Source: Bispira polyomma (taxonomy: Eukaryota). From it: DNA of 64,000 bases. This document shows, piece by piece, positions 15,501-18,500 of the stretch. A model generated the notes under the pieces. The model was given only the letters and a program-made list of their open reading frames with translations, did not search any database and was not told where the DNA came from. The position numbers and the translations under genes are program-made. Positions within the stretch are counted from its first letter, which is position 1; the number at the start of each line of letters is the position of its first letter. The stretch covers positions 46,004,001 to 46,068,000 of the forward strand of contig OZ287750.1 of assembly GCA_965649765.1 (NCBI GenBank). Reading direction: 5' to 3'.

Positions 15501-18500
15501 AAATAAAGATTAAAAGAAAGCATGCATATGTGTATTGGTAATCAAAATGCCCCAAAAAAACAACACATCATTTGTGAGTTATTATTGAAAATAAAGCCAA
15601 TTTTTGTTGAGAAGAAAAGTGAAGAAAACTTGTCAATGTCAATGTCATTAGCATATATAAAAATAATTTCTTCCAAAAGCAAATCTTTTCAACTATGGAG
15701 CTCATAGTATGAAATATAAAATATATTTTTATAATGTATGGTATAAAACAACAAAAATTGTAGGCATGAACACTTACAATAATTGTCTCCTAATGTGAGA
15801 TACCATAATTGATACCTCTGTGCAGCAGTTATATAGGCACCAGGGCTGGTATTCTCGAACGTATACTCAGCTTAAACTCATACTCAGCTCAAATCTGGAA
15901 TCTCTATATCTCTAGATACGGTAAATATATCTAAAATTTGACTGCATATTTGAATTCAGGGTTAAAAGCTCTATTAAAATGAATGGTCACAAGTATAGGT
16001 TATTTCCATGTACAATGATTTCCATATGGTCTATATTTGAGTTGAGTATGAGTTTACGCTGAGTTTACGTTCGCGAATACGGGCCCTGGGGTTGTATTTA
16101 CAAAAGGTCTTAGTCTTAACTTTGTCTTAAGCTTACTTTAAGACGCATCCAGAATTTAAGCATCTAAGCATCTAAGACAAATATCTTGCCTAACAATACA
16201 TGTCCATAAAATCTTTTGAACATAGATTTCCATCTGAATTTTAAATTCAATCTGATTGCTTGTTAAAACTCAAACAACCAACAAACATAAACCTTTATTT
16301 TGTATATACAAACCTGACTGGGAGTATGCTGTGCCCACATCCATTTTGAAGGCTCCGAGAATAACATTAGACCGAATAAACATTTTGGACTGCTGAACCT
16401 GAGAGAGATAAGACATAGAATAAAAAAGAAAAGTGCAACATGAAAAAAACTGGCATGTTTTTTGCAATAACCCAATAAAGTGCAACCAAATTTTAAAATT
16501 TCTTGTACAGCTCCACACAAGACTTTAGTGCACATAAAGAACCTTGTTTAAGTTACTGTATACCAGCCTAACACCCTTTTTTTAAACCAGGCACAAAATA
16601 ATGATGTTGCCAACCGAACCCACCAAGGTCCAGAACTATACCAAATATGAAATTCCTACATACAACATTCCACCAGATAACTGCCAGTTATTTGTTGACA
16701 TAAAGGATTAAAAGAAATAATGTCTTGCAAAAGAAAATTCATGGCCTCGTGCCAATTCAATCATACGATTGATAACAGAACAATATGCTCATGCAGGCAG
16801 AAATTAAGGGACAACAGAATTGTTTACGACATGATGGTACAACATAACAGAAGAATTAACAATGTCACATTTAATACTGCACAAATACTTTGAAAACAAA
16901 AATACTTTTGCTGTTTGGCCTATATGTGATCACAGAGTCCATTAGCACTGGGGTAGCCTGTCCTTTTTCCTAAATACTATGACCACTGCTCCGGATTTCT
17001 GTGTGCTAATGGGGTTTTGCAATTTGCGAAAAAGGCTCTGATGAATAGAATTTGATTAAGCCACATTAGATATGAACTGTGATGTCACTGTATAATGGCT
17101 AGGACTTATTTGTGCAGTCTCAGCATGGCATTAGTGAAATAAGATTTAGGAAAGCTTGTTACATGAAAAAGGACAGAAACACAATATGAAAACAGTAAAC
17201 AATCCTAATTAATTTATTATGGCAGTGCCATGCATATATCAGTGAATAGCATGTAACTTGTCTAACAGACATAATATTTTACTGAAGCAGATATATTATA
17301 CTTTAAAGAGAAATCCAGGGATTTTATTTGGCGTAAAACTGGTCAAGATGCAATATGGTCTATACAAGCTATAATACAGACTTGGGCTATGCTGCTTATT
17401 ACAGGCAGATGGTGTTGTACAAATGGCCTTAATAAACTTTAAAAAAGTGTGTAACAAACAATTAATAGTGTATCAGGAATATATTATCATTCTGAAACAC
17501 ATTCATCCCAAGAATGTCTCAGGGTATTTATTACTGGTTTATAACACAACCAATGCAGGGGTTTATAATACATGACATATATCGGTACATTGTGACTTAT
17601 AGAAATTTTTTTTAATCCATGTCTCGGTAATTTTTGTGTCAATTACCATTGATAAAAGTCGGACTCATTAATGTTTCTAAATCGGAAATTTAATCTGCAG
17701 TTTATGGGTAAAGGGTTACTCAAACCTCCTGGGCTAAATTATTACCTTGCCATCATATTCTGAATTAACAACTGAAGGACATATTTAGATTCTATGCTTA
17801 TCTCTTTACTTAGTGACTTGAAGTTTTGACAACCTGACTTAGGGTGATAGAGCCAGATTTTAAAAAGTAATAATGTAAATATACATTAAAAAGGAGATAC
17901 TCAAAGAAATAAGTAGTAAAAAAAAAGACACATATATAACATAACATCTAGTGCAACAGTAAAAGTTTAAAGAAAATAAATAAACTAAGGTATATCATCA
18001 TTCTCTATTGGGGCTAATAAGACAAAAAAAAAACAAGGAGGAAATAAAGTTCTAATGATCTACCAGGTGCGGCATACACTGTCCCAACATCAAACTTAAA
18101 GGTCCCCACGATTGTCCCTGACCGGAGTAAGTTACGGGAATGGAGCACCTGTAAACAAAACAACACAGACATTCTCTACAAAATACACTACTCCCCCCAA
18201 AAAAGTACACAACTACTTGACAAAAAGGACATGGCGGCAGATCAAAAAGGATTTCGGATTCTACAAAGTTAATAGGATTTGATTTAAAACGTCATGTATG
18301 CAACTACTATAGTTTTAACACAGAGGGAGAGATTGTGTAATACACAGACACACACTATACTAAGCCTACGCTTCCTTTCAGCCGAACCGACGTCGGACAA
18401 TTTATTAACATCCTAGCTGATCCGACATCAGCTGATATAGCACTTTCTTTCATCTGATAAATACTCAAAATACATCAGATGTGGAGGTGAAAATGGCAGG

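Follow-up and report, generated by a model that had tools for sequence, protein, structure and literature searches.

Most of the stretch analyzed here, a 64,000 nt region of the Bispira polyomma genome (hereafter the window), is occupied by an otoferlin gene encoded on the minus strand. tBLASTn searches with invertebrate otoferlins yielded an ordered series of exons extending from approximately position 58241 down to 374, and the gene runs beyond the left end of the window. Its C2B-FerI-C2C domain order and its best matches to otoferlins point to an ortholog of otoferlin, a type-2 ferlin, and its best summed scores are with Lingula and nemertean proteins, indicating a lophotrochozoan-like animal. 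In the direction of transcription, the series comprises two exons encoding the end of C2A and the linker (58241-58014 and 31741-31673), a constitutive 132 nt C2B exon (21494-21625) placed by the tBLASTn series and by in silico joining, a constitutive 63 nt C2B exon ending in phase 0 (20700-20762), a pair of homologous exons (exon 1, 18064-18148, and exon 2, 16314-16398), a constitutive 116 nt exon starting in phase 1 and encoding the last C2B strand together with FerI (11785-11900), and six further exons spanning 374-10876, which encode FerI, C2C and beyond (10876-10836, 9588-9402, 6042-5850, 3614-3400, 2381-2273 and 539-374).

The window also contains four tandem arrays (60-420, 6012-6152, 8987-9365 and 11891-12085, with periods of 64, 46, 146 and 85), all of which straddle otoferlin exon boundaries and copy a donor or acceptor into an intron, where the copies may act as decoy splice sites. 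The introns flanking the exon pair contain MITE-like hairpins together with a repeat of very high copy number (18363-18780, 15840-16089, 19496-19721, 14754-15014 and approximately 12940-13195), one of them ending about 215 nt upstream of the exon 1 acceptor, and the longest stop-to-stop frame of the window lies on the plus strand at 62322-63110 (262 aa). A second otoferlin-like gene is encoded elsewhere in the same genome (G000:C2:41476001-41486000, locus L067). It has a single longer exon at the position of the pair and a longer L3 loop, of the sequences tried it most resembles paralogues from Owenia and Glandiceps, and it carries a comparable copy of an exon end near position 3044.

Exons 1 and 2 are each 85 nt long, preceded by AG and followed by GT, free of stop codons, and run from phase 0 to phase 1. 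They are identical at 13/28 residues and 46/85 nt, and the peptides of both match mouse otoferlin at one and the same position. Between them lies a 1665 nt GT-AG intron (16399-18063) with an AG exclusion zone of 49 nt. The exons themselves agree with the first-pass annotation, which had reported two open 85 nt exons with canonical splice sites, shared phase and 13 of 28 residues in common. The resemblance between the exons is also unique within the window: when its 69 open AG-85nt-GT segments are compared with exon 1, the score is 66 for exon 2 and -2 for the next best. Furthermore, an HMM built without the exons of the window finds exactly these two (E = 1.6e-18 and 2.2e-11; next match, 0.75), and the same scan detected no third copy in the window.

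When the gene is joined in silico using only exon 1 or only exon 2, the frame stays open across ten exons (435 codons). If both are joined, exon 2 acquires a stop at its nt 30, and if neither is joined, a stop arises at nt 112 of the next exon, which bears out the earlier claim that inclusion of both (170 nt) or neither shifts the frame. The early stops of these two forms lie far upstream of later junctions. The locus combines features by which tandem-duplicated mutually exclusive exons are recognized: adjacent homologues that resemble one another in length, phases and splice sites, each of which is in frame when used alone and encodes one and the same structural region. As judged from the sequence, it is very likely that the two exons are mutually exclusive. 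The trivial explanation, namely that the pair is an assembly artefact created by haplotype duplication, can practically be dismissed. A single short-read contig of 2539 nt (16104-18642) spans both exons with 0 differences in 3/3 runs; these runs derive from one study and probably from the source sample, so they exclude an assembly slip and do not constitute an independent observation. The low nucleotide identity of the two copies and the saturation of their synonymous sites are likewise contrary to a recent assembly duplication, and the exon pair is found at the loci of other animals as well, which together with the spanning contig refutes the artefact.

A metagenome scan provided at least 63 loci for comparison; apart from those named below, most were either too short or encode a different ferlin. 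The tandem pair is present in at least nine (L010, L011, L016, L017, L018, L021, L023, L032 and L035), among which L017 and L018, both nearly identical to L011, were excluded from the counts, leaving seven other loci. In these loci, which include both arthropod-like and lophotrochozoan-like representatives, one kind of exon (type 1, corresponding to exon 1 of the window) is always upstream of the other (type 2, corresponding to exon 2), the same order as in the window. Their paired exons measure 82, 85 or 88 nt and are always of 3n+1 length. The drift to 82 or 88 nt has occurred by whole codons inside loop L3 with 3n+1 kept, in exon 2 of L011, L021 and L032 and in exon 1 of L010. Two loci, L023 (7608-7638) and L035 (1930-1960), share a conserved 31 nt element directly before the exon 1 acceptor, which is a candidate regulatory element. 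Other arrangements exist as well. The vertebrate-like loci L022 and L048 have one exon, and the introns of L048 (96 and 88 nt) leave no room for a second; the insect-like locus L009 has type 2 only. Locus L004 contains an intronless 1923 aa otoferlin-like frame with the type 1 signature, approximately 50% identical to all named groups.

In protein searches and cluster look-ups, the 28-residue segments at the corresponding position likewise fell into two kinds. The cluster listings held at most 15 models per cluster, and the type counts given here refer to the models listed. Both types occur among the listed models of ten species: five bivalves (Argopecten irradians, Mizuhopecten yessoensis, Crassostrea angulata, Ostrea edulis and Mytilus edulis), the brachiopod Lingula anatina, two decapods (Procambarus clarkii and Homarus americanus) and two flies (Contarinia nasturtii and Phlebotomus papatasi). 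Among proteins with intact flanking motifs, 307/310 contain exactly one 28-residue segment, the other three being bird models with unrelated read-through. The exception is a Gryllus GenBank model (P0448), which joins both copies with five extra residues and is without the upstream motif. The isoforms of relatives are automated gene models; taken together with the same-order tandem pairs at seven other loci, the models of ten relatives point to the use of one exon or the other, as had been proposed. The conservation of the second exon in relatives, on which that proposal also depended, is apparent from the same pairs and species.

Several taxa list a single type: Mya shows type 1 in 8/8 listed models, whereas Octopus bimaculoides (4/4) and Eriocheir (8/8) show type 2. 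Type 1 is found in 104/104 of the vertebrate models listed and in 15/15 of those listed for Ptychodera (36 members), so that deuterostomes, going by the models listed, appear to have only type 1. The first-pass annotation had put a single exon here in human OTOF, which is in line with the vertebrate models and with 2/2 vertebrate-like loci. Of ten representatives considered as outgroups for polarizing the duplication, the six with names include no non-bilaterian, and a third protein search was crowded by vertebrates. In the listed chelicerate models (P0140, P0275, P0147 and P0298), one segment mixes type 1 (H3, G11) and type 2 (K12, Q27) features, possibly as a result of conversion or as an intermediate state.

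The relationships among these segments were examined in a tree built on 17 species and their 34 exons (28 columns after removal of one inserted residue). The tree splits the exons by type (support 97/91), and for 34/34 exons the nearest neighbor is of the same type. Identity follows the same division, at 0.59 among type 1 exons and 0.58 among type 2 exons, against 0.44 when the two exons of one species are compared. For nine species known from proteins only, the type labels were set by sequence; with labels set by genomic order alone (16 rows), the split has a support of 89/92. The AU test rejects a duplication confined to this species (p-AU 0.022). For exon 2, pN is far below pS in every pair tried, including L023/L035 (0.08 vs 0.55), L011/L021 (0.09 vs 0.82) and the window against the others (pN 0.25-0.33, pS 0.82-0.94), a pattern indicating that exon 2 is under purifying selection. 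The earlier suggestion of an old pair maintained by selection is therefore upheld by the type-split tree and by these substitution patterns.

Two alternative histories have to be weighed against this one. Arthropods and lophotrochozoans could have duplicated the exon separately, with the type signatures converging afterwards. Convergent tandem exon duplication is common (PMC9741552), and the AU test leaves a clade of all arthropods unrejected (p-AU 0.115 over 28 columns). However, this scenario must also account for an identical exon order in all eight loci, arthropod-like and lophotrochozoan-like ones among them, and for four diagnostic positions held in common in addition to the strength of the type split, and we regard it as improbable. 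Alternatively, exon 2 of this species could be a degenerating relic that has dropped out of use in splicing. It is among the most divergent type 2 copies (end branch 0.3, best identity 57%), it has lost K12, and it carries unusual residues at positions 5, 6, 12 and 24. Despite this, it has no stop or indel, retains intact AG/GT boundaries and the core residues, and is preceded by a pyrimidine tract stronger than any other in the set (0.85), which together with its low pN relative to pS makes decay a decidedly improbable interpretation. An old tandem duplicate retained in this species remains our preferred reading.

As for how exclusion might be achieved, several mechanisms were considered. Steric exclusion requires a distance from donor to branch point of less than approximately 50 nt (PMC5740500). 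In the eight loci, the spacers of the pair range from 275 to 8365 nt and the AG exclusion zones from 43 to 189 nt, which rules out this mechanism and agrees with the earlier remark that a 1665 nt spacer is too long for simple steric exclusion. Incompatibility between U2 and U12 introns was likewise rejected, as the examined introns are GT-AG and no donor fits the U12 consensus.

The first-pass annotation had regarded RNA pairing or NMD as plausible, and these two fared differently. Competing long-range RNA pairing between a docking site and selectors, as in Dscam, could enforce exclusion, and two observations would be in keeping with it: a 38 nt match of A/U runs (71% complementary) between the tract after donor 1 and the intron after exon 2, and the occurrence before exon 1 of the 31 nt element common to L023 and L035 (E = 6e-6). 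Against this, 0/8 duplex tests of flank versus intron in the window outperformed shuffled sequences (z from -1.6 to +1.1; 12 dinucleotide shuffles each), no duplex test was consistently low across 5/8 loci, a sample containing no genomes of close relatives, and comparison of the introns of the window with those of the other loci yielded no conserved block other than low-complexity matches. Local MITE-like hairpins or A/U runs account for most of the inverted repeats close to the exons. We find pairing unlikely, having found no signal of it in these comparisons. The frame-shift basis expected for NMD is present in the form of 3n+1 lengths and early stops.

The splice signals themselves are biased. 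The 44 nt following donor 1 are richer in pyrimidines than those following donor 2 in 8/8 loci. In the window (18014-18057), this U/pyrimidine-rich tract immediately 3' of the exon 1 donor has a pyrimidine fraction of 0.75 vs 0.50 after donor 2, exceeding all nine constitutive donors of the window (0.23-0.66), and it is a candidate splicing-regulatory element. In 7/8 loci, the pyrimidine content of acceptor 1 is below that of acceptor 2. In both comparisons the eight loci are not independent, as L023 and L035 are alike and so are L011, L021 and L032. Biased splice signals combined with NMD are thus the likely basis of exclusion. Presumably, the choice is decided by splice-site competition, in which exon 1 would combine a pyrimidine-poor acceptor with a U-rich tract past its donor and exon 2 would offer the stronger acceptor. 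The U-rich element after donor 1 would help the weak exon 1, akin to TIA-1 action, and NMD would remove transcripts that carry both exons or neither, given a length not divisible by three and an early stop upon joint inclusion.

The segment exchanged by this pair is of particular relevance to membrane binding. By alignment, the exon maps to mouse residues 335-362, and exon 1 encodes the part of C2B that extends from the end of strand 6 through loop L3 and strand 7 to a short helix. AlphaFold models of a type 2 (chiton) and a type 1 (bivalve) C2B both depict the segment as a strand end, a loop, a strand and a short helix, and the best match of the type 2 model is mouse otoferlin (E = 1.5e-19). 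The expectation from C2 topology that the segment would include the third top loop is accordingly confirmed by the models of both types and by the alignment to the tip of mouse L3. According to the 2025 cryo-EM study, mouse C2B is devoid of Ca2+ ligands and binds the membrane via the tip of L3, where L341 and L342 penetrate the membrane with K339 and R343 at its surface; this loop was proposed to pre-position otoferlin on the membrane without calcium (PMC12526402). K339, L341, L342 and R343 correspond to exon positions 5, 7, 8 and 9, where chain position 175 of the 1767 aa construct equals K339 provided that its 51 extra residues lie at the N-terminus, and the spacing K-x-L-L-R agrees. In myoferlin, C2B exhibits the same membrane binding by L3, in addition to contacts of the C2B top loops with C2G (PMC12264198).

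Across the 17 species, type 1 has the signature H3, G11 (17/17) and T12 (14/17), which is also the vertebrate type, whereas type 2 has Q3 (15/17), R9 (17/17), N11 (10/17) and K12 (16/17). Exon 2 of the window displays the Q3, N11, L14 signature without K12. The hydrophobic pair at positions 7-8 is kept in both types, as usually is R9, and G15, K18 and D20 are present in 17/17 of both. An invariant Gly followed by Thr at positions 11-12 of type 1, where type 2 usually has Asn followed by Lys, would be expected to change the flexibility of the loop, and the K12 of type 2 would place an added positive charge beside the inserting tip, which may tune the binding of lipids or of C2G. Type 2 has the higher loop charge in 9/17 species, the same charge as type 1 in 7/17 and the lower one in 1/17. 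In this species the charge is +2 for each exon because the K12 of exon 2 has been replaced, and the charge argument therefore fails for this particular animal. These latter observations bear upon another interpretation, in which a genuine, ancient pair yields isoforms of nearly equivalent function and persists mainly because regulated mis-splicing, by way of NMD, controls expression, or because it serves contact with a partner instead of lipid binding. The residues common to both types, the equality of net loop charge in 7/17 species and the several lineages that list or keep a single type are all compatible with near-equivalence. Conversely, it offers no ready account of the residues held beside the inserting tip (G11 in 17/17 type 1 exons, K12 in 16/17 and R9 in 17/17 type 2 exons), and we assign it a minor yet appreciable chance.

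On balance, we are fairly confident of the following reading, which derives from comparative sequence analysis: exon 2 and exon 1 constitute an old tandem duplicate, likely spliced singly and likely predating the split of lophotrochozoans and arthropods, which swaps L3 of C2B such that the isoforms would differ in their Ca2+-independent grip on the membrane. As gene models of molluscs, a brachiopod, crustaceans and insects contain either one exon or its counterpart, a single gene is likely to produce two otoferlin versions, which would hold membranes differently. A more speculative extension, which we put forward tentatively and consider less probable than not to hold in full, is that a splicing switch has existed since the protostome ancestor and sets the calcium-independent anchor of otoferlin in two states by cell type, with the vertebrate hair cell representing a fixed type 1 state. 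If so, the relevant cell types could be, for example, those with rapid release in sensory or neuronal settings as opposed to those with slower secretion or repair, and the type 2 loop would be a natural variant for testing C2B pre-docking in hearing. Regardless of this extension, two versions of L3, both under selection across phyla, mean that loop swaps in C2B or in the full-length protein can test pre-positioning; the 2025 structure paper, in its accessible portion, gives no functional test of L3 (PMC12526402).

With respect to known systems, the type of splicing is ordinary and the isoforms are already present, unremarked, in RefSeq. Isoforms of invertebrate otoferlin and otoferlin-like genes, such as Lingula anatina X1 (XP_013379024.1) vs X3 (XP_013379026.1), Procambarus clarkii X1 vs X2 and Contarinia nasturtii X1 vs X2, have the position, the 28-residue swap and the two types seen in the window, although these pairs are automated, the event is undescribed there, and the type 2 exon of the window differs in being without the usual K12. 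No description of the otoferlin pair was found in the titles and opening lines of abstracts of the openly accessible literature searched, and the OTOF pair is not mentioned in the accessible portions of PMC2923515 and PMC9282427, in the main text and one supplement file of PMC9741552, or in the main text of PMC5740500. The swapped segment resembles L3 of mouse otoferlin C2B (PMC12526402; PDB 9QE2) and of myoferlin C2B (PMC12264198), whose tips insert without Ca2+. In contrast to the protostome pair, the vertebrate otoferlin models have one exon only, and the portions of these two papers that were available describe no alternative loop. Among ferlins, the alternative exon 1 of dysferlin, which yields a C2A variant (PMC2923515; DYSF row of the PMC9741552 supplement), is likewise an instance of a C2 domain diversified by a homologous exon. 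The dysferlin case concerns a first exon and C2A of a vertebrate type-1 ferlin, whereas the otoferlin case concerns an internal C2B pair of a type-2 ferlin. Another parallel is the tandem duplicated exon pair of Ca-alpha1T/cca-1, which is protostome-wide, occurring in arthropods and molluscs and absent from chordates (PMC9741552). In both genes, a functional region of the protein is swapped by a pair common to arthropods and molluscs. However, Ca-alpha1T/cca-1 is an ion channel, whereas the otoferlin pair exchanges the membrane-insertion loop of a ferlin C2 domain. With it, a vesicle-fusion protein joins the short list of protostome-wide exon pairs, most of which concern ion channels and muscle proteins.
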